DNA from: a virus
Taxonomy: Duplodnaviria; Heunggongvirae; Uroviricota; Caudoviricetes
Length of the DNA stretch: 12,109 nt
Direction: 5' to 3' (one strand)
Virus record (IMG/VR): IMGVR_UViG_3300019790_000026
Span: 1 to 12,109 of that record
The notes below the pieces were generated by a model. The model was given only the letters and a program-made list of their open reading frames with translations. It was not told the origin of the DNA and made no database searches. This document shows, piece by piece, positions 1-12,109 of the stretch (within the stretch, counting starts at the first letter, position 1; the number at the start of each line of letters is the position of its first letter). The position numbers were made by a program, and so were the translations under genes.

Positions 1-264
1 TTCCTCGATCCGGTGTTGTCGTTGTCTCAGCAGTGCACTGGTCTGTTCTGCTTCGGCATAGAGCCGCGCCTGCTCCCGGTTATTGGTTTCAGTCAGAATG
101 GACAGGCTGATAAGCTGGCTGTTTTTCTTCGTCAGTTCCTGCGCTTTACTTTTCAGCGCCGCGCGCTGCGTTTCGATGGTGTGGCTGGCGCTGTTAAGCC
201 GCCACGACTGCCAGCCCAGCGCAACGAGTGCCAGCGCCACCACTACTGCCAGCGCACGCGTCAT
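1..264 (-). CDS. Rz/LysB-like i-spanin, partial (3-prime end lies beyond the left edge)
   Basis: Minus-strand ATG at 264..262 preceded by AAGGAG. Translation MTRALAVVVALALVALGWQSW... has an N-terminal transmembrane segment followed by a charged, coiled-coil-like region, as in Rz-family spanins. The start overlaps the upstream stop as ATGA. Confidence 0.6.
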   Translation of the reverse strand, partial: MTRALAVVVALALVALGWQSWRLNSASHTIETQRAALKSKAQELTKKNSQLISLSILTETNNREQARLYAEAEQTSALLRQRQHRIEE

Positions 265-458
265 AGTCCAGCTCCTTTAAGGCACCAGGCCATCTCCCGC
301 GCACGGCGGTTATCCAGCCCCTGATTAAACACACCTTTTACATAAACCCAGCGCGGCAACTGTCGGCACGCATCTGCCCAGCGCCGCTGATTGAGCAATT
401 TCACCAGTGTGGAACTACAGGCATTGCCCGTTGCTGCTTCTGCAGAGCAGACTCCAGT
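261..458 (-). pseudogene. C-terminal fragment of a GH24 (T4/P22-type) phage lysozyme, 5-prime truncated
   Basis: Minus-strand frame ending in TGA at 263..261 translates to ...LLNQRRWADACRQLPRWVYVKGVFNQGLDNRRAREMAWCLKGAGL, which resembles the conserved C-terminus of phage lysozymes. There is no start codon, and an in-frame stop sits at 459-461, so only about 65 codons remain. Confidence 0.45.
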
Positions 459-546
459 TCAGACAGGCGTTCTTCCTGCTCAGACAGAGATTTTTCGGTT
501 CGCGCGCTCAGGTTTTGCTGCTCAGTGGCGACCAGCTCCACGGCTC

Positions 547-2472
547 ATGACAGTGAAAGCAAAGCGTTTTCGCATCGGGGTGGAAGGTGCCACCACCGAC
601 GGACGCGAAATCCAGCGTGAATGGCTGGAACAGATGGCAGCCAGCTACAACCCGGCGGTGTATACCGCGCTGATTAACCTTGAGCACATCAAGTCTTATC
701 TGCCGGACAGCACCTTTAACCGCTACGGCAAGGTGACGGCGCTGTTTGCTGAGGAAATCACGGAAGGTCCGCTGGCAGGCAAGATGGCGCTGTATGCCGA
801 CGTTGAGCCAACGGAGTCCCTGGTGGAACTGGTGAAAAAACGCGACAAGTGGGGTGACTATGGGCCGCTGGATCAGATGCAGCTCACCACCGCCGCACGC
901 TACTGCCAGCTCATTATGAAGGAGCACAAAGAAGGGAAAGATTTCAAAGAGATTGACCTGCTGGCGCGCCAGTCGGAGCGCCATGCGCGGATCGGCAAGT
1001 TTAACAATGGCGGCAACGAAGCCGACTTAAACCCTAACGTCGCCAACCGCAACAAAGGCCCGCGTCGTCAGCCGGAAAAGAACGTTTTCACCGATGAACA
1101 GATTGAGAAGCTGGAAGAAATCTTCCATTCCTCCATGTTCAACTACCAGCGCCACTGGTGGGAAGCCGGAAAAACCAACCGCATCCGCAACCTGCTGAAG
1201 TCACGCCAGATCGGCGCGACCTTCTATTTTGCCCGTGAAGCCCTGATTGACGCCCTGCTAACCGGGCGTAACCAGATTTTCCTTTCCGCCAGCAAGGCAC
1301 AGGCCCACGTCTTTAAGCAGTACATCATCGACTTCGCCAAAGAAGTGGAGGTGGAGCTGAAAGGCGATCCGATAGTGCTTCCTAACGGGGCCACGCTGTA
1401 CTTCCTCGGCACCAATGCCCGCACGGCCCAGAGTTACCACGGCAACCTGTATCTGGATGAATATTTCTGGATACCGAAATTCCAAGAGCTGCGCAAAGTG
1501 GCTTCCGGTATGGCTATTCACAAAAAATGGCGACAAACCTATTTTTCCACGCCATCCAGCCTGACACACAGTGCTTATCCGTTCTGGTCCGGTGCGCTGT
1601 TCAACCGTGGGCGCAACAAAGCCGACAAGGTGGACATCGACCTGTCCCACAGCAATCTGGCCCCCGGCCTGCTGTGCACAGACGGGCAATACCGCCAGAT
1701 AGTCACCGTGGAAGATGCGGTGCGCGGCGGCTGTAACCTGTTCGACCTCGACCAGCTACGCATGGAGTACAGCCCGGACGAATACCAGAACCTGCTGATG
1801 TGCGAGTTCGTGGACGATCTCGCGTCCGTGTTCCCGCTCAGCGAGCTGCAAGCGTGCATGGTGGACAGTTGGGAAATCTGGACCGACTTTCATGCACTGG
1901 CCCTGCGCCCGTTTGGCTGGCGCGAAGTGTGGATCGGTTATGACCCGGCAAAAGGTACGCAGAACGGCGACAGTGCCGGATGCGTGGTGGTGGCACCGCC
2001 AGCCGTGCCGGGTGGTAAGTTCCGCATTCTTGAGCGTCACCAGTGGCGCGGGATGGACTTCCGCGCCCAGGCTGACGCCATCAAAAAACTGACCGAGCAG
2101 TACAACGTGACCTACATCGGCATCGACTCGACAGGTGTCGGCCACGGGGTTTACGAGAACGTGAAAGCGTTTTTTCCAGCCGTCCGGGAGTTTGTCTACA
2201 ACCCCAACGTTAAAAACGCCCTGGTACTCAAGGCCTACGACATTATCAGTCACCGTCGTCTGGAGTTTGACGCCGGACACACCGACATAGCGCAGTCATT
2301 TATGGCAATCCGTCGCGCCACCACCGCCAGCGGCAACCGCCCAACCTATGAAGCCAGCCGCAGCGAAGAAGCCAGCCATGCCGATCTGGCCTGGGCAACA
2401 ATGCACGCACTGTTTAACGAACCGCTGCAGGGCGAGTCCGCCAATACCAGCAATATTGTGGAGATTTTTTGA
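547..2472 (+). CDS. Terminase ATPase/large subunit (P2 gpP-like) with a foreign N-terminus resembling capsid scaffold/protease gpO (apparent fusion)
   Basis: From about codon 98 onward (KRDKWGD..., DFKEIDLL, SRQIGATFYFAREAL, NQIFLSASKAQAHVFK, LYFLGTNARTAQSYHGN) the ORF matches my recollection of the GpP terminase family. Residues 1-97 (KRFRIGVEGATTDGREI...INLEH...FNRYGKV) match the GPO scaffold N-terminal motifs. ATG at 547 is preferred over the tracked TTG at 391. The stop overlaps the portal start. Confidence 0.7.
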   Translation: MTVKAKRFRIGVEGATTDGREIQREWLEQMAASYNPAVYTALINLEHIKSYLPDSTFNRYGKVTALFAEEITEGPLAGKMALYADVEPTESLVELVKKRDKWGDYGPLDQMQLTTAARYCQLIMKEHKEGKDFKEIDLLARQSERHARIGKFNNGGNEADLNPNVANRNKGPRRQPEKNVFTDEQIEKLEEIFHSSMFNYQRHWWEAGKTNRIRNLLKSRQIGATFYFAREALIDALLTGRNQIFLSASKAQAHVFKQYIIDFAKEVEVELKGDPIVLPNGATLYFLGTNARTAQSYHGNLYLDEYFWIPKFQELRKVASGMAIHKKWRQTYFSTPSSLTHSAYPFWSGALFNRGRNKADKVDIDLSHSNLAPGLLCTDGQYRQIVTVEDAVRGGCNLFDLDQLRMEYSPDEYQNLLMCEFVDDLASVFPLSELQACMVDSWEIWTDFHALALRPFGWREVWIGYDPAKGTQNGDSAGCVVVAPPAVPGGKFRILERHQWRGMDFRAQADAIKKLTEQYNVTYIGIDSTGVGHGVYENVKAFFPAVREFVYNPNVKNALVLKAYDIISHRRLEFDAGHTDIAQSFMAIRRATTASGNRPTYEASRSEEASHADLAWATMHALFNEPLQGESANTSNIVEIF

Positions 2473-3497
2473 TGGGAAAGAGTAAGAAAAACCGCGCTGC
2501 GGCGACGAACCAGATCCAGCATAAAAACCAAACTTCAGCCGAAGCATTCAGCTTCGGTGATCCCGTTCCTGTTCTGGACCGCCGCGAATTACTGGACTAT
2601 GTGGAATGCGTAAAGATGGACCGCTGGTATGAGCCACCCGTAAGTTTTGACGGACTGGCGCGAACATTCCGCGCCGCCGTACACCACAGTTCACCGATTG
2701 CAGTAAAGTGCAACATTCTGACCAGCACCTACATCCCTCACCCGCTGCTCAGCCAGCAGGCGTTTTCACGTTTTGTGCAGGACTATCTGGTTTTTGGTAA
2801 CGCCTACCTGGAGAAACGCACGAACCGATTCGGTGAAGTTATCGCCCTTGAGCCTGCGCTGGCAAAATACACCCGACGCGGATTAGACCTAGATACCTAC
2901 TGGTTTGTGCAATACGGCATGACCACGCAGCCGTATCAGTTCACGAAAGGCAGCATTTTTCATCTGATGGAACCGGACATCAACCAGGAGATCTACGGCC
3001 TGCCCGGCTATCTTTCTGCCATCCCATCCGCCCTGCTCAACGAGTCCGCCACGCTGTTCCGCCGAAAGTATTACATTAACGGTAGTCATGCAGGCTTCAT
3101 CATGTACATGACCGATGCCGCGCAGAACCAGGAAGATGTGAACAACCTCCGCAATGCGATGAAAAGTGCCAAAGGCCCTGGCAACTTCCGCAACCTGTTT
3201 ATGTACTCGCCTAATGGTAAAAAAGACGGACTTCAGATTATCCCGTTGTCAGAAGTCACAGCGAAGGATGAGTTTCTGAATATCAAGAACGTGAGCCGTG
3301 ATGACATGATGGCGGCACACCGCGTGCCGCCGCAAATGATGGGAATTATGCCTAATAATGTCGGGGGGTTTGGGGATGTGGAGAAGGCTAGCAAGGTATT
3401 CGTAAGAAACGAATTGATGCCCCTGCAGAAACGATTGCAGGAACTAAATAACTGGTTGGACGAAGAAGTGCTCAATTTTTCAACCTATGAGCTTTAG
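2472..3497 (+). CDS. Portal protein (P2 gpQ-like)
   Basis: 341-aa ORF directly after the terminase gene with TGATG stop/start overlap. Size and position match P2 Q, and the sequence resembles the gpQ portal family. ATG at 2472 is preferred over the tracked TTG at 2469. Confidence 0.85.
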   Translation: MGKSKKNRAAATNQIQHKNQTSAEAFSFGDPVPVLDRRELLDYVECVKMDRWYEPPVSFDGLARTFRAAVHHSSPIAVKCNILTSTYIPHPLLSQQAFSRFVQDYLVFGNAYLEKRTNRFGEVIALEPALAKYTRRGLDLDTYWFVQYGMTTQPYQFTKGSIFHLMEPDINQEIYGLPGYLSAIPSALLNESATLFRRKYYINGSHAGFIMYMTDAAQNQEDVNNLRNAMKSAKGPGNFRNLFMYSPNGKKDGLQIIPLSEVTAKDEFLNIKNVSRDDMMAAHRVPPQMMGIMPNNVGGFGDVEKASKVFVRNELMPLQKRLQELNNWLDEEVLNFSTYEL

Positions 3498-3502
3498 TTT
3501 TA

Positions 3503-3533
3503 AAACGAAGACCATTAGGTCTTCGCTTTATTT
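3503..3533. terminator. Bidirectional intrinsic terminator shared by the convergent portal and retron RT genes
   Basis: Hairpin CGAAGACC (3506-3513), loop ATTA, GGTCTTCG (3518-3525), flanked by an A-run on the left and CTTTATTT on the right, so it reads as stem plus U-tract on both strands. The RT stop codon lies in the loop. Confidence 0.5.
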
Positions 3534-4477
3534 AAAGGGTTCTTTCCATATTTTTTTTCTAATTTGCTAATATAAGTTATTAATCTCCTATGGCTTTTTG
3601 AATCCACACTTAAAATAAATGACAACCATCCCCTAACGTGTTCTATCTCAGAAGACTTACCGCAAAATATATGATGTATCTTTGCTCTAATTTCTTTATA
3701 TTTTTCTCTACCTATCCCAACTTTCTCTTGTGAAATAACTAAACCTGTAACTTTCCTCTGACTACGAGGCCCACTAATACAAGTTTTTTTTGAGTTAATA
3801 ACCAATCCTTCACTTGGGATTATAGAAAATAAAAAATCACGTGCTTTAACAACCTTTTTCATAGACTGTGCAGATAAGGTGAGATCATCGGCATATCTCG
3901 TATATATCAAGCCCCGACTACCTGCATAACCCTGAATACGATAATCAAGTTTAGAACATATTAGATTAGCTAATTTAGGTGATGATGGAGCACCTTGTGG
4001 TAGCAGATTTTTATAACAACATATTTTTGTCAAAACTGAAGATATTAGTCGATTATAACCAAGAGAATGGAACACTCCAAAAACTTTGTTAGCAGTTAAA
4101 CTTGGGAAAAAATCCTCCAAATCAATATTCAGTATAAAGTTTGCCCCAATATGCGGGGTAGCATTATTCAAAATAGATTGGTGCTTTTCAAATCCAATAG
4201 AAAAAGGAGATGACGACAGTTTATCTAAAATGTTACGTAGAACCCATCCTTGTAAGGCTTTAAGTTCTCGAGAAGGTTGGTAAATGGTTCTCATTCTCTT
4301 CTCTGGGCCTTTCTTTTCTACAGTGTAGATCCTATAGCGAAAATCAGCTGTATAGATTAACAACCGAAGTGTTTCAACAGATATGCGAGTCGCCTTAGAC
4401 ATGTCATGCAAATTGTTCATGACAGGTAGGCCGAGATTTCTCAATCTAAAAGTGTTCAAATATTCAGCGGATTTCAT
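3515..4477 (-). CDS. ret: Retron reverse transcriptase, Ec86 / Retron-Eco1 type
   Basis: 320-aa ORF with reverse-transcriptase motifs (NIDLEDFFPS, LPQGAPSSPKLANL, YADDLTLS) and the retron-typical VTG motif (RKVTGLVIS). The translation matches my memory of the published Ec86 RT, and the gene sits immediately downstream of the msr-msd. Confidence 0.93.
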   Translation of the reverse strand: MKSAEYLNTFRLRNLGLPVMNNLHDMSKATRISVETLRLLIYTADFRYRIYTVEKKGPEKRMRTIYQPSRELKALQGWVLRNILDKLSSSPFSIGFEKHQSILNNATPHIGANFILNIDLEDFFPSLTANKVFGVFHSLGYNRLISSVLTKICCYKNLLPQGAPSSPKLANLICSKLDYRIQGYAGSRGLIYTRYADDLTLSAQSMKKVVKARDFLFSIIPSEGLVINSKKTCISGPRSQRKVTGLVISQEKVGIGREKYKEIRAKIHHIFCGKSSEIEHVRGWLSFILSVDSKSHRRLITYISKLEKKYGKNPLNKAKT

Positions 4478-4484
4478 GAAAGTT

Positions 4485-4496
4485 GCGCACCCTTAC
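4485..4496 (-). repeat. Retron a2 inverted repeat (pairs with a1 at 4641-4652)
   Basis: 12-nt exact reverse complement of 4641-4652. Confidence 0.85.
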
Positions 4497-4639
4497 GTCA
4501 GAAAAAACGGGTTTCCTGGTTGGCTCGGAGAGCATCAGGCGATGCTCTCCGTTCCAACAAGGAAAACAGACAGTAACTCAGATTCAATGCAGGATGCCGA
4601 AACAACATCCAGAGGTTGACCTTAATGATAAACCTCTCG

Positions 4640-5563
4640 CTAAGGGTGCGCATACGGAATCTTATCATAGTTAAATGTTGATTTTCTACGGTTTTCAAAA
4701 TTCATAATCTCAAGCCGCAATCGGTCAAGTGTCTTTCTATCAAAGACGCTCCTAACATAGCTAGCCCCCAAAGCAGTGACCTGATAACCATCAGTCATTT
4801 GAAGTATTTTTCGTTCATTTATTAGACGAGAAACAACGGATCTAACAATAATTTTAGATAAAACATCATCTTGCTTTATCGCTTTAAAAGCTAGTTCACA
4901 CAGTGTGCGGTAGTTGACACTATCCAGTAAATAGATACAAGGCAATAGAAACCGCTCTGCGTATAATATATTTCCAATATCTTTTGATACTTTATTTTCT
5001 TTCCTAACCTTCTTAATAGATGCCATTAATTTTTTATATAATCGTAATTTTCTGGCAACATCAATAGATGAATCACACATTTCTTTTAGTTCATTTGAAC
5101 TACAACGCAAAACAGATTTTGAATTAAACTTACGCAACAGGCGAACAGGACCATAGTTAATAAAGCTACGTTTTGATTTAAATTTTGCATCTTGAATGCA
5201 AATCAACTTTCTCCTTAAGTTTTCATTATTAGAGAACGCACCAAGCTCTGTGAAAGACCCCGGACTTTCAGGAAATAAAATTATTACATCGACAGCTTCA
5301 GCCAGAATATTTTCTAAACTTAAAAGGCTATGCTGCCCTTGACCAGCCAAAAGATCATCAAATAGATCTTCTGGATAAAATATATCAACATCACTGAACT
5401 TTGCTAAAAATTGTGATAATTGATGACGCCAAGATTGATGATTAGCAACGTCACCACCACATAGAAAAATGGTTATTTTAATATTAGCTCCTCGATAGAA
5501 GCCTTTCTTTGTGAGATGTCCTATAAGCTGTTGTTGCTGCTCATCGGTAAATTTTTTATTCAT
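4640..5563 (-). CDS. Retron effector: nucleoside 2-deoxyribosyltransferase-like (NDT) domain with a C-terminal putative DNA-binding region
   Basis: 307-aa ORF immediately upstream of msr-msd-ret on the same strand, with RBS GGGGAGA. The N-terminal region (IFLCGGD..., ILFPESPGSFTELGAF) fits the NDT/flavodoxin-like fold with the conserved Glu. Its TAG stop overlaps the a1 repeat. Confidence 0.85.
   Translation of the reverse strand: MNKKFTDEQQQQLIGHLTKKGFYRGANIKITIFLCGGDVANHQSWRHQLSQFLAKFSDVDIFYPEDLFDDLLAGQGQHSLLSLENILAEAVDVIILFPESPGSFTELGAFSNNENLRRKLICIQDAKFKSKRSFINYGPVRLLRKFNSKSVLRCSSNELKEMCDSSIDVARKLRLYKKLMASIKKVRKENKVSKDIGNILYAERFLLPCIYLLDSVNYRTLCELAFKAIKQDDVLSKIIVRSVVSRLINERKILQMTDGYQVTALGASYVRSVFDRKTLDRLRLEIMNFENRRKSTFNYDKIPYAHP
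4641..4652 (-). repeat. Retron a1 inverted repeat; the presumed priming G follows at 4640
   Basis: 12-nt exact reverse complement of 4485-4496, at the 5-prime end of msr. Confidence 0.85.
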
Positions 5564-5704
5564 AATCTCCCCGCTTTTTTTTCTACTTTATACATCAAGT
5601 TATGAATAGATCCAATCTCCATACCACATGGCGCGCGCTCGTATCCCCGCCACGCCTGCCCGCTTTATGCAGTGGTTTTCATGCACATGCATAACATGAG
5701 CAAA

Positions 5705-5730
5705 AGCCCGCCAGTTCTGGCGGATCTGAG
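5705..5730 (-). terminator. Putative intrinsic terminator (minus-strand sense)
   Basis: Perfect hairpin CCGCCAG-N3-CTGGCGG (5708-5726) followed on the minus strand by GCTTTTGC. Confidence 0.3.
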
Positions 5731-6035
5731 CAAAGACGATCCTCAATCGATCATGCGATTTCATGCAGCATAGTCATGCACTGTCAAGGAAGTGAAAATC
5801 CGTATCTGAATGGCCACTTGAAAAACGGATCATACGGGTTTACAAAGATGAATGTTCGCTGTGAACGGGAAGCGGAAGTTAACTTTCAGATAACATAATC
5901 CATATGCACGAGAACCTCTAAAATAGAATGGGACACCTAAGCGGGGTACTTACAACGATTCTTTCCATATTCACAGTTAACACTCTGTTTGGCGTATTTT
6001 TATTCAAATAGCAAACACCAATAAAAGGAGTTTCC

Positions 6036-6371
6036 ATGAACAATATTCCCCCTATACCACAGTTAGGAATTTATGTCTCAAAAATCGATCCCACCCTACG
6101 TATCACTGTAACCGATGTTGATATTGTTGATGGTGAGGATGATTCTCCTGATGATGAATTGTTTTATTTAGTCCACTGGATCGAGGGGGAAGATGAAAGT
6201 GATATGACAGCAATGGGATTTGAGCTAGACCCAGTAGAGTGGCAGGCTTTCGTTGAATCTGAGCAATTAGTGTTTGAGCGTGATCCGTACATGGATTCAA
6301 TCCCCGAAAATTCAAACTTGGCAAAGATTCGGGATTTTCTCATGAAGACTAAACAGAATGATCATTCGTAA
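6036..6371 (+). CDS. Hypothetical small, strongly acidic protein (111 aa)
   Basis: Strong RBS AAAAGGAG 6 nt upstream of ATG. Very Asp/Glu-rich (DVDIVDGEDDSPDDE, EGEDESD). AT-rich relative to the phage core. Divergent from the retron effector. Confidence 0.7.
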   Translation: MNNIPPIPQLGIYVSKIDPTLRITVTDVDIVDGEDDSPDDELFYLVHWIEGEDESDMTAMGFELDPVEWQAFVESEQLVFERDPYMDSIPENSNLAKIRDFLMKTKQNDHS

Positions 6372-6563
6372 GTGTAAGCATCCATCAGGAAAATGGTTTT
6401 GTAAGTGAATCATCAACTTTTAGAGAGTCTCAGACACTCCCACTTCTGCTTCTGACACAAAGCGGACGATCACTTATCAAAATAACCGCCCACCTTACGC
6501 CTTATTTCACTCATTGCCCAAACTAGCCCCCATCAGAATGAATCCTCCTGGGGGCAACATTTC

Positions 6564-6797
6564 TTAATGCAGCCAGCTGTCGTCCTCCCACACCTTCTGC
6601 ATAATTTTCATCACTTGTTTTCTTTCTTCATCCAGTTGCAGTCCGGTTAGTTCCACACCGTTAGAGCTACCTTTGCGAATGCGAATTACCGTTTTGGGAT
6701 ACAGGGGGCGCAGATTGCGGTAAAGCTCGGATTCAAGGGCGTCCAGGGTAGACTGGCTAATCTTCTGCTCTTTATCGATCATTATTTCAATGCGCAT
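6564..6797 (-). CDS. DinI-family protein (DNA-damage-inducible protein I-like)
   Basis: 77-aa product MRIEIMIDKEQKISQSTLDALESELYRNLRPLYP...VWEDDSWLH has the DinI length and pattern (MRIEV..., C-terminal acidic W motif). RBS GGTGA upstream. ATG at 6797 is preferred over the tracked 101-aa extension. Confidence 0.8.
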   Translation of the reverse strand: MRIEIMIDKEQKISQSTLDALESELYRNLRPLYPKTVIRIRKGSSNGVELTGLQLDEERKQVMKIMQKVWEDDSWLH

Positions 6798-6807
6798 AAA
6801 AGTCACC

Positions 6808-6996
6808 TCAGCTGATGACATCCATTGAGCGGTTGTATTCGTGGCTTCTGATTTTTGCCATGAGTTCATCAGTCAATTCAGAAACCCACTGCAGAGCCAG
6901 CCCCTTCTCTTCATCACTACACTCACTAGCCGCTACAAGCTTAAGAAAAAAATCAATGCGCTGGAGCTTCAAAGACTCCAAAAAATAGTCCTGCAT
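6808..6996 (-). CDS. Hypothetical 62-aa protein, first gene of the SOS-boxed operon (possibly the N-terminal part of a Tum-like antirepressor)
   Basis: ORF with strong RBS AGGAGG, directly downstream of the LexA-box promoter and 10 nt upstream of the DinI-like gene. Confidence 0.5.
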   Translation of the reverse strand: MQDYFLESLKLQRIDFFLKLVAASECSDEEKGLALQWVSELTDELMAKIRSHEYNRSMDVIS

Positions 6997-7036
6997 CTTT
7001 CCTCCTATGACACCAAAACAATACTGTATACATAAC

Positions 7037-7056
7037 CACTGTTTATATTTACAGTA
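7037..7056. promoter_or_regulatory. LexA (SOS) box overlapping a putative promoter for the orf62/DinI-like operon
   Basis: cACTGTttatatttACAGta is a perfect CTGT-N8-ACAG with AT-rich spacer. A second half-site (TACTGTATAC) lies at 7022-7031. A TTTACA / TATACT promoter-like pair is on the minus strand. Confidence 0.7.
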
Positions 7057-7148
7057 TATAATAATCTTACTGATGTAAAACGTTTTTTTACGTTCATCGG
7101 CCTGATATGCCTGGTATTATTAAGAGCACGAATTGTCAACCCGCGTAA

Positions 7149-8594
7149 TTAATACAGGTTCCGCCACTTATCATCTTCCTTCAGACGCTGGTTCCGATAG
7201 AAGATACGCAGGCCTGCTCCTGACGGAATACTGCCGCCGCGAAGGAGCAAATCGACTTCTTTCTCGCTGCCATCAAATCCCCTGGACTTCAGTTCATAGA
7301 CGAGCTGCTGTCGCTGATGGTCTGTAATTCGCTGTTTGTAGTCTTTACGCCGTTTCGGTTTCACCTGGCGTAACCTTGCAGCCAGTTCCCGGCGCTCTTT
7401 TTTGCTCATACTGTGCAGGTAATTGTGCAACTCCTTGTCATTCATACGGGTAATATCCGTTCTGGAGTCCCCATCAGCTGATTTGTCTTTCCCTTGTTGG
7501 TTCAAATTTTCAGCAAGGGGACAGTTATTGCCACGAGTCCAAGGGGCGCAAGCGCCCTGGTCGGCTGCCGCCTCCTGAACGTCAACGGCCTTACGAACCA
7601 TTTTCCACTTCACCGCATGAGTGCAGATCTTGCCCTCTGCAATGGGTGACCAGATGCCATAAATACGAATACCGTGATCGCCATATGCGGTCGGTTCTTC
7701 GTTGATTTCATAAGCAGTTCTGATGAGGTGATATTTGCGGGGAACCAGTACGCCGCCCTGCTTCATGATGTAGGTGGCAAAACAACCAGCATCAGCAGCA
7801 GCCAGGATTGCATCAAGACGCGGGTTATCCAGTACCGGCGCACCTGCTTTTTTGTCACCCTGTTGCCTTGCCGCCTGACCAGCCAGCAATCGCAGTTCAC
7901 GGTAAGCCTGACGCCCCGGAATGCCAAAGAAGCGGAATTGCTGAACACGATGCAGAGACGCCCAGGCATTAACGTATTCAGCGTTATCACGCAGGGATTT
8001 ACCCGTTTCCTTGCTGATCTCCCCAGCCAGACCACGCCCGTCAATGTTCTTACTGATGTATTTCGCGATATAGCTTGTTGGCGTACCTTTGCGCGGGTTT
8101 ATCAGCTCAGACTTAAAGCGTGGTCCCGTGTTATTGCCCAGCTCCTCGCGGTCTTCACGGATGGCAAACTTACGCAGTAATGCAGTGATGGCGCGGCGGT
8201 CTTTTTTACGCATGAAACACATGAGATGCCAGTGCACAGTACCGTCATGATGCGGCTCAGCTACCGCACCTGCAGCAACACGCCCGATCTCTGCGGTTGC
8301 ACTCATGACGTAATGTGGCAGTTTCTCTTTTGCCACCTCATTAATCGGTACGCATGGCAGGCAGTGAATCTGAGCCAGAAAACCATCTACCAGCGTTGAA
8401 TCTTCAGTCAGATCGGTAAGCAGCCAGATTTCTGGTGCGGTTAATAAATGAGGTTGCGCTGGGTTCAACTTGTTCCGCAGAATCTGCACATTCATGCCAG
8501 CACGTTCTGCCAGTTGCACCAGGTTGTGGCGCAATGCGAATGCACGACAGGCTTCATCAAAATGTGGATGTTTGGAAACTTGGTAATCAAACAT
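7149..8594 (-). CDS. In-frame fusion ORF: 186 CII-like N-terminus (~115 aa) joined to the C-terminal catalytic part of a gpA-type rolling-circle replication initiator
   Basis: N-terminus [24 protein letters not shown]...[26 protein letters not shown] matches my recollection of phage 186 CII. The downstream part carries the HUH-like HWHLM motif and the paired-tyrosine motif [12 protein letters not shown] typical of P2 gpA / phiX174 A proteins. ATG at 8594 with RBS AGAGG. Confidence 0.65.
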
Positions 8595-8626
8595 GGTCAA
8601 TGCCTCTGATGTATTTCAGAATCGAA

Positions 8627-8848
8627 CTAATTAAGGTTTAGATTGCATTCTGAAAGCGCATCAACGGTCATTGCTGCTATGTTGATCATCACTTTTTCGC
8701 GTTTTTTATCTTTGCGCAGTCGGTGACGGATAAGGCGTCCATCAGCCAACATGTCATTGATGGTATCGATGGATAGCCCTGTCAGCTCGCTATAGCGTTC
8801 AATAGTCACATGAGGGGTGGTAAGAGTGATTGAAATGTTAGGTCTCAT
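8627..8848 (-). CDS. Apl/Cox-like small HTH protein (first early-lytic gene: excisionase / transcription regulator)
   Basis: 73-aa ORF divergent from the CI gene and immediately upstream of the CII-like ORF, as apl is in phage 186. HTH-like segment [21 protein letters not shown]. Confidence 0.5.
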
Positions 8849-8967
8849 GATGCAACATTCCTCGTTTAATGATGATTAATCAGGACGAATACGGATCGTT
8901 TGTATTTTGTGAACACCATAAACATACGATCGCACAGTGAAATCGTCAAGATAAAAGTTCACTTGGA
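8849..8967. promoter_or_regulatory. Immunity switch region between apl-like and cI-like genes (lytic/lysogenic promoters and candidate operators)
   Basis: 119-bp divergent intergenic region containing related motifs ATACGGATCGTTTGTAT and ATACGATCGCAC. Its position matches the pR/pL switch of 186-type phages. Confidence 0.4.
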
Positions 8968-9543
8968 GTGACCATGAATTTGGAGAAAGGCGGACGAGGC
9001 GCTATAGAGCGCATGGTAGAAGCTTATGGATTCAAGACTCGACAGGCGTTGTGCGATCATTTAGGAATCTCTAAAAGTACACTCGCCACACGCTACATGC
9101 GTGACTCATTCCCAGCAGAATGGGTAATCCAGTGCGCCCTTGAAACAGGCACCTCGCTTAATTGGCTCACAACCGGGCATGGTTCAAAGCAAACTTCAGG
9201 TAATACAAATACTATGGAAGTTGCTAAATATGTATTATCTGATGGGGCCTTGTGTGAAGACGGTTTTTATATTTTCGATAGAGAATTTCTACCGTCGGCA
9301 TTCAAGAATCTTTTTGTAATCACAGATAATAATTCTGAATTTATTTGTGATAAGGAATTTGATGATATACGTGATGGTAAATGGGTAATAAGTATTGATG
9401 GCGAAATAACGATCCGTGACATTACTCGTTTACCCGGTGGAAGAATCTTCGTCGAGGGTGGAAATAGAGCCTTCGAGTGCAAGATAGAAGATGTTGAAAT
9501 AATTGGGAAAATTATAAGTTTAACAATTAAGTACGTTAGGTAA
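8968..9543 (+). CDS. cI: CI-type immunity repressor (phage 186 CI-like)
   Basis: 191 aa (186 CI is 192 aa). N-terminal HTH (TRQALCDHLGISKSTLATRYMRD) with a C-terminal oligomerisation-like domain. RBS GGAGTGA. Divergent from the apl-like gene and upstream of int. Confidence 0.8.
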   Translation: MTMNLEKGGRGAIERMVEAYGFKTRQALCDHLGISKSTLATRYMRDSFPAEWVIQCALETGTSLNWLTTGHGSKQTSGNTNTMEVAKYVLSDGALCEDGFYIFDREFLPSAFKNLFVITDNNSEFICDKEFDDIRDGKWVISIDGEITIRDITRLPGGRIFVEGGNRAFECKIEDVEIIGKIISLTIKYVR

Positions 9544-9558
9544 TACCGGGAGGAAACT

Positions 9559-9750
9559 ATGCTTGGTAAGGTATTTTTTGTGGTTTTATCATGCTCTTTG
9601 TTATTAAACCCACTAACTACCTATGCTAAAAATTATCCTTGTTCTGGGAAAAAGGGAGGTGTCTCTCACTGTACCTCCGATGGAAAGTTCGTTTGCAATG
9701 ATGGAACTATTAGTAAATCAAAAAAAATCTGTACTAAAAACTCGCGATAA
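9559..9750 (+). CDS. Small secreted Cys-rich protein (63 aa) inserted between cI and int
   Basis: RBS GGAGGAAACT-ATG. Predicted signal peptide [23 protein letters not shown], then a Lys-rich mature peptide of about 40 aa with 5 Cys. Confidence 0.55.
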
Positions 9751-9936
9751 ATTTTGCTTTTATATCTGCGCCTAATATAACAATGAGCCGCAGGCTAACC
9801 GCAAAAGTCACATACTCACATAGCAAAAAATAGCTAACTTCATTATGGCTTCAGTGAGATGTATGGTCGCAGGATTTCATACATTGACACTGGTTATACA
9901 TACAGTAAAAATGCTCTCTACTGGAGGGCATTTTTT

Positions 9937-10953
9937 ATGGCAGTACGAAAACTCACCACAGGAAAATGGCTTTGCGAATGTTACCCCGCCGGACGTAGTG
10001 GACGTCGTGTGCGTAAACAATTCGCCACCAAAGGCGAAGCTCTGGCTTTTGAGCGTCACACGATGGAAGAAACCGAAGCAAAGCCCTGGCTGGGCGAATC
10101 AGTGGATCGTCGGACATTGAAAGACGTGATTGAGCTATGGTTCAAACTACATGGTAAATCTCTGACAGCTGGGCAGCATGTCTATGACAAACTGCTGTTG
10201 ATGGTTGACGCTCTGGGCAATCCCCTTGCAACTGATCTAACCTCTAAAATGTTTGCCCACTATCGAGATAAACGCCTGACAGGTGAGATCTACTTCAGCG
10301 AGAAATGGAAGAAAGGAGCAAGCCCGGTCACCATTAACCTGGAGCAAAGCTATCTAAGTAGTGTTTTTAGCGAACTATCCCGCCTGGGCGAATGGTCGTA
10401 TCCGAACCCACTGGAGAACATGCGAAAATTCACCATCGCAGAAAAAGAGATGGCATGGCTTACCCATGAGCAGATTGTTGAACTGCTGGCTGATTGCAAA
10501 CGTCAGGACCCAATTCTGGCACTGGTAGTCAAGATATGCCTAAGCACAGGCGCACGCTGGCGAGAAGCAATAAATCTTACCCGCTCGCAAGTGACCAAAT
10601 ACCGAATTACCTTTGTAAGAACGAAGGGGAAGAAAAACAGAAGCATCCCTATCAGTAAAGAGCTTTACGAAGAGATCATGGCGCTTGATGGGTTCAATTT
10701 CTTTACAGACTGCTATTTTCAATTTTTATCCGTGATGGAAAAAACGTCTATCGTGCTCCCTCGCGGTCAACTGACACACGTTCTGCGCCATACGTTTGCG
10801 GCGCACTTCATGATGTCGGGTGGAAATATCCTTGCTTTGCAAAAAATCCTCGGACATCACGATATAAAAATGACTATGCGCTATGCCCATTTAGCACCCG
10901 ATCATCTTGAGACGGCTCTGAGATTCAACCCCCTCGCAACGCTAGAAGTGTGA
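9937..10953 (+). CDS. int: Tyrosine integrase (P2/186 Int family)
   Basis: 338 aa. Catalytic residues in context: ...STGARWREA..., ...HVLRHTFA..., ...MRYAHL.... RBS GGAGGG. ATG at 9937 is preferred over the tracked start at 9859. Confidence 0.9.
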   Translation: MAVRKLTTGKWLCECYPAGRSGRRVRKQFATKGEALAFERHTMEETEAKPWLGESVDRRTLKDVIELWFKLHGKSLTAGQHVYDKLLLMVDALGNPLATDLTSKMFAHYRDKRLTGEIYFSEKWKKGASPVTINLEQSYLSSVFSELSRLGEWSYPNPLENMRKFTIAEKEMAWLTHEQIVELLADCKRQDPILALVVKICLSTGARWREAINLTRSQVTKYRITFVRTKGKKNRSIPISKELYEEIMALDGFNFFTDCYFQFLSVMEKTSIVLPRGQLTHVLRHTFAAHFMMSGGNILALQKILGHHDIKMTMRYAHLAPDHLETALRFNPLATLEV

Positions 10954-11061
10954 TCTACTGGTGCAAAAATAACATCATCCCCCACTAGCTGAGTTAATTG
11001 CGTCAGAGTAAACTTTTATCAGTATATAAGTTCACTTTTATTCAATATATTAAGAGATTAC

Positions 11062-11394
11062 ATGGCTATCATTACCGTAAAAAAACATACTGTCAAAAAA
11101 GCATTATCGATGGGATTTGAAAAAGTACTTGACGATCGTGGTTATGATTCTGGGGCGTACTACGTTAAAGATGGCAAAAAGTGGATTTTTGATATTGTTG
11201 CGCTTAAGCAAAAACAAGGAGCAACCTCAGATGATGAGTTAAAAATCCTTGGGTATGATGTTGATACATATAATCTTGTAAAAAATGAATCTAATGAACT
11301 GGCTGAACTTTATCAAGATATTGCAGTTGAAGATGGTGAGCCAATGTATCTAGAGGGTGGCGTGTACTTATATCCTGATGGTTCTATCCGTTAG
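11062..11394 (+). CDS. Hypothetical protein (110 aa), AT-rich, just downstream of int
   Basis: ORF with AT-rich promoter-like upstream region. No family recognised. Composition contrasts with the GC-rich sequence that follows it. Confidence 0.5.
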   Translation: MAIITVKKHTVKKALSMGFEKVLDDRGYDSGAYYVKDGKKWIFDIVALKQKQGATSDDELKILGYDVDTYNLVKNESNELAELYQDIAVEDGEPMYLEGGVYLYPDGSIR

Positions 11395-11528
11395 CATGCA
11401 AATTGGCAGCACAACCGGGTTGTTCCAAATGGCGACAAAGTGGCGGCAGCGGTTGGCATTACCCCGTAATAACCACCACTGACCACCAACCCAACTTATT
11501 GTTTTTACTATAACTTATTGTTTTCATT

Positions 11529-11594
11529 AACCCGTTTACATAAATGGGTTTTTTGTTATCTAAAACTTATCTACTACCCTGCAACCCTCTCAAC
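11529..11594. repeat. Inverted repeat copy A (66 bp, perfect reverse complement of 12044-12109)
   Basis: Direct comparison: 11529-11594 equals the reverse complement of 12044-12109 at every position. Confidence 0.95.
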
Positions 11595-12074
11595 CATCCT
11601 CAAAATCTCCTCGCGCGATAGCGGCTTACGGTCGGTGACAAAATGCAGCGTCATCCCCTCAATAAACGCATCAAGCGCGCGGGCGGTTCCGGGTTCAAAC
11701 CATTGTTCGAGCGTTTGCTGACTGCGCTGCATCCAGTTTTGCATTACCGTTTTTAATAGCGGTTTTCGGCTAGCCAGCGCGTAGAGCTGGTACATCAGCT
11801 CCATGTTATCCGGCGTTGCAACCTGTGAGCTGTAGATCATATCGGTGATAGCCTGGCATGCGCCCGGAGCATCACTAACATCGCTAAAAAATGCCTGATA
11901 TTGCCGGGACATGATCTCAGTAAAACTGCTGAACGCCTCCAGTAACAACTCATCAATTCCTGAAAAATAGTAGGTCATCGATCCCAACGGTACCCCGGCA
12001 AGGGTAGCAATTTTGCGGTGCGTAACAGCATGTATTCCGTAAAGTTGAGAGGGTTGCAGGGTAGTAGATAAGTT
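11574..12074 (-). pseudogene. TetR-family transcriptional regulator, apparently 5-prime truncated by the inverted repeat
   Basis: The minus-strand frame is open from 12074 to the TAG at 11576..11574. It encodes a TetR-type HTH ([27 protein letters not shown]) and a ligand-binding-like C-terminal domain. There is no ATG upstream of the HTH (only a TTG at 11987, inside the HTH). The first codons and the last codons plus stop lie inside the two inverted-repeat copies. Confidence 0.65.
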
Positions 12075-12109
12075 TTAGATAACAAAAAACCCATTTATGT
12101 AAACGGGTT
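12044..12109. repeat. Inverted repeat copy B (66 bp, cut by the window edge, so it may be longer)
   Basis: Perfect reverse complement of 11529-11594. The window ends inside or at the end of the repeat. Confidence 0.95.

Follow-up and report, generated by a model that had tools for sequence, protein, structure and literature searches.

The acidic DUF8087 gene beside retron Ec86 in the P2-like prophage of E. coli B is a free-standing moron derived from a lysogeny operon

What is a small, extremely acidic gene doing back to back with a retron in a P2-like prophage, and does it belong to that retron at all? The question is raised by a 12,109-nucleotide stretch of viral DNA (positions 1 to 12,109 of IMG/VR record IMGVR_UViG_3300019790_000026; hereafter the window), which matches the defective P2-like prophage of E. 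coli B/BL21(DE3) with 100% identity, the same sequence being present in REL606 and many derivatives. A first-pass annotation of the window had suggested that one open reading frame (ORF) of 111 amino acids (aa) encodes a DNA mimic or anti-defence protein, a modulator of the neighbouring retron, or an unrelated moron. The ORF proves to be a free-standing accessory gene (moron) that is unrelated to the retron and has its native home in the lysogeny operon of 186/P2-like phages. The gene and its translation signal are located as follows.

6036-6371, plus strand: DUF8087 gene (the ORF under study), 111 aa
6025-6030, plus strand: Shine-Dalgarno sequence AAGGAG, 5 nt 5' of the ATG

The ORF starts with ATG and comprises 111 codons, with a TAA stop at 6369-6371. 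Its protein contains 15 Asp and 11 Glu against 4 Lys and 3 Arg, with a net charge of -19 and an isoelectric point (pI) of 4.05, the charge being concentrated in residues 21-80. The GC content of the gene is 40% (38% at third codon positions, GC3), compared with 51-57% in the terminase and portal genes. It lies on the plus strand, divergent from the retron operon, whose effector and reverse transcriptase (RT) genes are on the minus strand, and a gap of 472 bp separates it from the effector gene at 5563. The first-pass description of a strongly acidic protein with clustered Asp and Glu, a strong ribosome-binding site (RBS), AT-rich composition and an orientation divergent from the retron is confirmed by these data.

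The ORF is a real, conserved gene and a member of DUF8087 / PF26332 / phrog_17127, a catalogued but uncharacterised family; this names the family that the annotation had not recognised. The protein is WP_001059831.1 (in newer RefSeq annotation a 'DUF8087 domain-containing protein') and is matched over its full length by phrog_17127 (positions 1-111 of 111, E 2e-70). The same phrog matched 36 of 36 members of the broad family alignment, and nearly all homologues of the ORF carry the precomputed annotation PF26332 (DUF8087). Homologues at E <= 0.01 number 61, across Enterobacterales, and a profile search of 1.8 billion representatives gave 35 relatives, most of them 70-106 aa long and covering residues 5-80. 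At least 1000 contigs encode the identical protein, for which one source uses the name 'Ybl33'. The ORF had no match in a local Pfam-A (without the PF26332 model), NCBIfam or PADLOC-DB 2.0 (Pfam and PADLOC at E <= 0.1), only single chance matches were obtained when all 36 family members were compared with Pfam, and the literature held no paper on DUF8087, WP_001059831 or, in the relevant sense, ybl33.

Three residues of the family are invariant (P8, G11 and W69), and the motifs PxxG[LI]YVS, FFLV and ELDPxEW are conserved. Acidity is likewise a property of the whole family, with a pI of 4.53 or less in 36 of 36 aligned members and a core net charge of -9 to -18; it is kept down to 26% identity, with conserved acidic residues at positions 27, 53, 56, 63, 65 and 68. 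The ORF is under purifying selection, the ratio of nonsynonymous to synonymous substitution rates (dN/dS) among 10 orthologues being 0.07-0.25 for nearly all pairs and 0.42 for one close pair.

Whether the gene belongs to the retron was examined through its neighbours in other genomes. Two features of the window delimit the comparison.

3515-5563, minus strand: retron Ec86/Eco1, the slot A cargo; a neighbour only, outside the feature
5631-5780, no strand assigned: conserved P2-backbone spacer between the cargo slots, present in ~1300 of 5426 E. coli genomes

The identical protein is encoded in E. coli W beside a GmrSD type IV enzyme, in E2348/69 beside DprA-PRTase, validated as a defence system by Rousset et al. 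2022 (PMC9122126), and in strain LR-48 beside IS1 only, with no defence gene. By blastn, these three prophages share sequence with the window only from 5631 rightwards; the retron cassette (~3455-5630) is therefore one interchangeable cargo, in a position here termed slot A. The ORF, at 96-100% protein identity, is present in 26 P2-like contigs of IMG/VR, whose slot-A sequences fall into 19 unrelated clusters, only one of which (1 of the 26 contigs) is retron Ec86. Of ten slot-A cargo proteins tested, nine matched PADLOC models. Seven of these matches were strong (E <= 1e-20), namely to retron I-C RT-Toprim, Old-like, AbiU, PDC-S06, HEC-06, bSEFIR and AbiL, and there was a weaker match to pAgo-associated-like.

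Among complete E. coli genomes the ORF is present in 214 of 5426, at this prophage position in ~131, and together with the retron in 46 of the latter. Conserved co-occurrence with a type II-A retron is not seen, either in these genomes (46 of ~131) or in the viral contigs (1 of 26). An accessory of retron Ec86/Eco1, such as a modulator or antidote of its NDT-like effector, is suggested by some features of the ORF: it adjoins the retron operon divergently, every RefSeq E. coli genome with this retron has the ORF also, and RacC, which blocks the retron toxin RcaT, shows that small prophage proteins are able to do so (Bobonis et al. preprint). However, the 46 genomes represent essentially one prophage lineage, many of them B-strain derivatives, the retron is missing from ~85 other genomes and 25 of 26 viral contigs in which the ORF is present, and the shared sequence starts outside the cassette. 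Furthermore, the type II-A retron is defined by RT, non-coding RNA (ncRNA) and NDT effector only, and the ORF is matched by none of the hidden Markov models of retron components in PADLOC and NCBIfam. RacC (Rac prophage, 91 aa) and the ORF are both small prophage proteins, neither of known fold, but the ORF has no retron association beyond one lineage, and the Eco1 effector is NDT-like rather than the RcaT that RacC targets. The TIC/TAC screen with retron-Sen2 (Bobonis preprint) included B21_00835-00839, of which B21_00839 is RT-Eco1; judged by gene order alone, B21_00837 is probably this ORF, but its measurement was marked as technically problematic and the screen is uninformative here. The suggestion that the ORF modulates the neighbouring retron thus fails against an identical protein beside GmrSD, DprA-PRTase and IS1, with at least 19 types of cargo in all, and of the alternatives offered by the annotation the unrelated moron is the best supported.

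The origin of the gene is recorded in the sequences on either side of it.

5862-6407, plus strand: transplanted module (upstream stub, DUF8087 gene and integrase stub); the blastn match to L004 covers 5915-6407 and the multiple alignment puts the left edge at ~5862
5928-6011, plus strand: 27-codon 3' stub of a gene for a Flk_N-like tail-anchored membrane protein, MGHLSGVLTTILSIFTVNTLFGVFLFK followed by a stop
6358-6408, plus strand: 5' stub (16 codons) of a P2/186-type integrase gene, MIIRKCKHPSGKWFCK followed by a stop

In intact 186/P2-like prophages the native gene order is C repressor (HTH_3), Flk_N-like protein, DUF8087 and integrase (int). Intact copies of this operon were found in L038/39 of E. 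coli, L017-24 of Klebsiella, L012 of Buttiauxella and the five viral contigs L104-108. Its synteny is conserved even where identity is as low as 54% for DUF8087 and 40% for the Flk_N-like protein. The latter (PF27202, phrog_5825; 210-215 aa, C-tail-anchored) always precedes DUF8087 in intact operons. The tail of the L038 Flk_N-like protein ends in AAGVLLGAVLFK and the same stop codon as the stub in the window, and the segment from that stop to the RBS is nearly identical in the window and in the intact L038 operon. On the other side, int of L038 begins MAVRKLPSGKWLSECYP with its start codon 14 nt inside DUF8087; the stub in the window consists of the first codons of int and overlaps the last 14 nt of DUF8087 in exactly the same way. 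Longer int stubs of 46-63 codons, with stops and frameshifts, lie 3' of the gene in at least 10 other contexts. The module is the stretch common to the copies in unrelated islands and prophages, and because remnants of both flanking genes are present, it follows that a fragment of ~0.5 kb was cut from a lysogeny operon and then spread. The native home of the ORF is the lysogeny operon of 186/P2-like phages.

Within the spread fragment, selection has persisted on the middle gene alone. The 27-codon upstream stub evolves almost neutrally, with a pooled ratio of nonsynonymous to synonymous polymorphism (pN/pS) of ~0.6, and has lost its ATG in two copies. For these reasons, and as it has no RBS, we rejected this hydrophobic stub as a functional mini-protein.

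Some further observations concern the operon and the fragment. The Flk_N-like gene lies at 5344-5976 in L038 and at 7343-7990 in L017, and is also present in L012 and L104-L108; its protein had no match in PADLOC and weakly matches the anti-repressor Ant family (phrog_245, E 8e-7). A motif in its N-terminus (GNQNRISGRDFNEN) recurs in L017 at the C-terminal end of the upstream CI-like repressor, as read in the longest frame called for that gene (GQGNRVAGRDYNEN). The Flk_N-like gene and DUF8087 may form a two-gene system. About 200 bp 3' of the fragment carrying DUF8087 and the int stub, several unrelated islands and prophages have an ORF of 127 aa (phrog_26730; L004:6538-6921, L036/L037:6535-6918, L040:6529-6912), absent from the copy in the window, which may be part of a larger mobile unit.

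The position into which the fragment was inserted in the window is bounded on the left by the spacer and on the right by returning P2 sequence.

6444-6797, minus strand: P2 backbone resumes (DinI-like gene and the stretch downstream of it)
6797-6564, minus strand: DinI-like gene, convergent with DUF8087

The ~1300 E. coli genomes with the 150-bp spacer share also the flank downstream of the DinI-like gene (from ~6444), and in many prophages, for example W5-6, spacer and flank are contiguous. In others the interval is occupied, on the plus strand, by a 141-aa hypothetical protein, a DUF4145 protein (weakly similar to PD-T7-4), a GNAT protein or a DUF6236 protein. The ORF is one alternative occupant of this second small cargo slot, slot B, of the Q-A hotspot; it is a variable gene between portal gene Q and replication gene A, as cargo of that hotspot is. 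The earlier placement of ORF and retron in one accessory hotspot therefore stands, with the correction that their cargo slots are separate. The spacer contains a terminator-like hairpin (5724-5707, minus strand), from which we infer the terminator of an early operon ending with the DinI-like gene; slot-B inserts would therefore separate the last early gene from its terminator and be oriented antisense to early transcription.

Swapping of defence cargo in the P2 Q-A hotspot has its fixed right-hand limit at the spacer, which may be both early-operon terminator and recombination anchor. A 54-aa ORF (5600-5764) overlaps the spacer and matches the first 45 residues of phrog_28685. Three IMG/VR P2-like contigs (L096-L098) have DUF8087 in slot B with a 62-codon int stub and ~1.2 kb extra before the DinI-like gene, and seem to preserve the same insertion at an earlier stage, when less had been trimmed away.

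Like P2 Old, Tin and other Q-A cargo, the ORF lies between Q and A, is variably present and AT-rich, and sits amid validated defence systems (PMC9122126); it probably also shares with such cargo the possession of its own expression signals. It is homologous to neither Old nor Tin, however, lies on the opposite strand in a small slot of its own, is far below the size of known cargo and has no PADLOC match; it came from the C-int operon, not from a defence island.

Beyond P2-like prophages, the family is found in host elements of many types, and outside the native operon it has no conserved partner gene. In a Morganella CP4-like island a member directly follows full-length Mokosh MkoC (E = 0), near an Antirestriction (PF03230) gene, and in an IS-rich E. 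coli island a copy lies beside a TmtA/MkoA-like helicase. Other members are carried by a satellite-like int-AlpA-DUF927 island at ssrA, by an Edwardsiella lambdoid prophage (next to a DUF4365-TPR protein), by Xenorhabdus (beside a filamentous prophage) and by Pantoea (a lone copy at the pgsA-uvrC attachment site). A subfamily of 35-42% identity with a basic N-terminal helix occurs in betaproteobacterial GPA/HTH_17/integrase islands that carry Gabija plus restriction-modification genes, or a TIR-STAND protein. Scans gave five loci in species-representative genomes and two short loci in metagenomes. The family was absent from 50,697 deposited phage genomes and present in one of 72,556 plasmids, which fits the function of a resident element. 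As a separate observation, two small integrative elements (L013 and L029) with a P2-type GPA replication gene and HTH_17, and no called repressor, have a DUF8087 homologue with a basic N-terminal helix (MGQAKLRGSKEERIAQ) in divergent position and cargo of Gabija plus restriction-modification genes or TIR-STAND, and may represent an undescribed satellite-like family.

The AlphaFold2 model of the protein (predicted local distance difference test score, pLDDT, 78; predicted template modelling score, pTM, 0.65) is a five-stranded small beta-barrel plus helices, with strands predicted at residues 11-15, 22-32, 42-50, 60-64 and 78-82 and helices at 66-76, 84-87 and 94-109. In size and charge the protein resembles T7 Ocr (gp0.3; 117 aa, pI 4.05, net charge -28), and like Ocr and ArdA it is the product of a single gene carried on mobile elements; the large net negative charge is family-wide, as described above. 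The resemblance does not extend to structure. Ocr is a helical mimic of bent B-DNA, whereas DUF8087 is predicted to be a beta-barrel; the model gave no fold match to Ocr, ArdA or any solved structure, the family profile matched no PDB sequence (E <= 10), an hhalign alignment of Ocr with DUF8087 had a probability of 0.08% (E 0.62), and the ORF matched neither the ArdA nor the Antirestrict (PF03230) Pfam model (0 families at E <= 0.1). Homology to Ocr or ArdA, for which the annotation had proposed a structural or profile search, is rejected on sequence, profile and fold. DUF8087 also differs from this type of protein in being absent from virulent phages and conjugative plasmids and in having its native home in a lysogeny operon.

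What the protein does can be proposed from these features, and we tentatively favour the view that the free-standing moron derived from the lysogeny operon encodes an acidic decoy, made by the lysogen, that acts in conflicts between mobile elements; the decoy part of this view is held with low confidence. The ~0.5-kb fragment with both stubs was recombined into slot B, between the DinI-like gene and the hairpin-bearing spacer and antisense to the early operon, and the same fragment was copied into other islands, satellite-like elements and lambdoid prophages. The native position means co-transcription with repressor and integrase, and the antisense slot B would favour expression when the early operon is off, so that the gene would be made mainly in the lysogen, as a product of the resident element. 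The protein alone would be soluble, a very acidic small beta-barrel serving as an electrostatic decoy or mimic that titrates a positively charged protein; a soluble binder of a basic protein is suggested because the family is acidic throughout, the protein is small and shows no catalytic or membrane feature, and away from the native operon the gene has no partner. Its target would probably bind nucleic acid, a protein of a competing phage or mobile element being favoured and a host restriction enzyme less likely, and the effect would be prophage-side exclusion in the manner of P2 Tin. Lysogenically expressed morons of P2-like phages are typically exclusion genes (Old, Tin). We lean towards exclusion for this reason, because the family is confined to integrated elements, and because known anti-defence genes are rare in P2-like prophages (28 of 1511).

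The native gene also invites comparison with lambda rexAB and the defence genes in the repressor-integrase region of mycobacteriophages, which likewise lie between repressor and integrase and are co-transcribed in the lysogen. Exclusion phenotypes have been shown for those genes, which encode membrane or enzyme systems, unlike DUF8087, which is a soluble acidic protein as modelled.

Several points weigh against a lysogen-made decoy. The designation as binder or decoy follows from charge and size alone, because the AlphaFold2 model is moderately confident and matches nothing, and residues 31-41, where acidity is highest, form a variable-length loop that offers no fixed surface. A defence role would be unusual for a protein with no enzymatic, transmembrane or sensor domain and no PADLOC match. 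A promoter scan of 5500-6650 gave no sigma-70 consensus site, so that expression at this location is presumptive; a weak TTGAAA-17-TACAAA, seen by eye at ~5818-5846, is a candidate only. The BL21 prophage is defective, and the synteny with the Flk_N-like gene and int could reflect a role inside the phage's own lysogeny circuit.

A more ambitious version of the proposal, which we consider possible but doubtful, is that DUF8087 founds a new class of small acidic beta-barrel inhibitors, expressed by lysogens in prophages and islands of the P2/P4 world, that neutralise a DNA-binding protein. The target could be a widespread immune nuclease or helicase, which would make DUF8087 a new anti-defence protein in BL21, or a key protein of a competing phage or satellite, which would make it a minimal, one-protein exclusion system. 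In this version the native protein may act jointly with the tail-anchored, Flk_N-like membrane protein.

Two other functions, about equal in probability and each less probable than the decoy, are live candidates. The first is that of an anti-defence DNA mimic of a new fold, inhibiting an immune enzyme that binds DNA, such as type I/IV restriction or a Mokosh or Gabija helicase-nuclease. It would shield either the element while lysogeny is being established or the resident prophage against its host. The Ocr-like size and acidity, the conservation of that acidity in distant members, the hopping of a single-gene module between unrelated mobile elements and the defence and anti-defence neighbourhoods, one with an Antirestriction gene, are all consistent with it, as is the timing of the C-int operon, which is transcribed on entry if lysogeny is chosen. 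It is opposed by the lack of any resemblance to Ocr, ArdA or a solved structure, whether in sequence or in fold, by the absence of the family from phage records and its near absence from plasmids, and by a native position in the lysogeny operon rather than the early entry region. The DNA-mimic and anti-defence proposal of the first-pass annotation thus agrees with the family-wide acidity and the single-gene mobility, and a relation to known mimics is rejected.

The second, of similarly low probability, is that of regulating the circuit by which the element itself controls lysogeny and integration, stabilising lysogeny or tuning integrase together with the Flk_N-like protein and/or by binding a basic regulator (Int, a Cox/Apl/AlpA-type excisionase-activator or an antirepressor). 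Such a role would account for the conserved order C, Flk_N-like, DUF8087, int despite sequence divergence, and for the overlap of the DUF8087 stop with the int start by 4-14 nt, which suggests translational coupling. In the GPA/HTH_17 and AlpA/DUF927 islands, moreover, the gene is divergent from the excisionase-replication operon, the usual place of a repressor, no HTH repressor gene was called, and the weak match of the Flk_N-like protein to Ant points the same way. However, selection persists after separation from int and the Flk_N-like gene, even in a defective prophage, and ~90% of E. coli P2-like prophages are without DUF8087, which is therefore no core regulator.

It is considerably less probable that the gene is a silent passenger here, functional only in its native operon, with displaced copies being recent, unexpressed relics. 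The lack of a sigma-70-like promoter upstream, the antisense orientation to the early operon, the defective state of the BL21 prophage (with gpA truncated and fused to a CII fragment) and the youth of the slot-B copies, which are 96-100% identical, would agree with this. In at least 10 contexts and genera, however, the displaced copies have kept the ORF intact at the dN/dS values given above and have kept the RBS, while the stubs on both sides decayed through stops, frameshifts and lost ATG codons. Least probable is an accessory of the retron, which the rotating cargoes and the homology boundary at 5631 lead us to reject.

The remaining genes of the window are listed below.

391-2472, plus strand: terminase
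2469-3497, plus strand: portal Q
4477-3515, minus strand: retron RT (PADLOC RT_II-A, 7e-128)
~4639-4478: msr-msd gap between effector and RT
5563-4640, minus strand: retron NDT-like effector (PADLOC NDT_II-A, 2.6e-94)
right of the DinI-like gene, in order: 62-aa ORF; truncated gpA fused to CII fragment; Cox-like gene; CI; 63-aa ORF; integrase

NCBIfam STM3845_fam was matched among the retron neighbours of the ORF. The gap at 4478-4639 we take to encode the well-known Ec86 msr-msd ncRNA; Rfam 15 gave no match at E <= 0.1 in the whole window, this gap included. To the right, a 483-aa ORF (7149-8600, minus strand) joins an N-terminal CII (CP76) fragment to the C-terminal part of the replication protein gpA, and compared with E. 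coli W ~4 kb of early genes are gone; the BL21 prophage is defective because of this loss and the gpA/CII fusion. Between CI and int lies the 63-aa ORF (9559-9750, plus strand; phrog_6000, E 4.6e-34), with a signal-peptide-like N-terminus. It occupies the same lysogeny-operon position as native DUF8087, and is a candidate for another lysogenic-conversion gene. A second small acidic orphan (11062-11394, plus strand; 110 aa, pI 4.71, GC 36%, GC3 26%) had no match in Pfam, NCBIfam or PADLOC. It sits between the integrase and the chromosomal gene rcdA, the int-att position, which was named a minor P2 defence hotspot in a 2026 preprint.

What is new here is the two-slot anatomy of the hotspot, the operon origin of the gene with its two stubs, and a constant gene beside rotating immune cargoes. 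The paired stubs form an unusually clear record of a lysogeny-operon gene turning into free-standing hotspot cargo. DUF8087 is among the few conserved genes of the P2 defence hotspot to which none of the tools gives a defence or anti-defence role, and it is easily testable, being present in E. coli B/BL21, E. coli W and enteropathogenic E. coli E2348/69. Without a role in conflict it would be an ordinary orphan moron; a new inhibitor class, if true, would be a notable find, for which the mechanistic argument is at present weak. The gene keeps its place as at least 19 different immune cargoes are exchanged next to it, and in other elements copies of the 0.5-kb fragment lie near Mokosh, Gabija, TIR-STAND and restriction genes. 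Were a phenotype found, in either direction, the gene would be a new small-protein player in phage-host conflict, and the repeated capture of the fragment would be explained.
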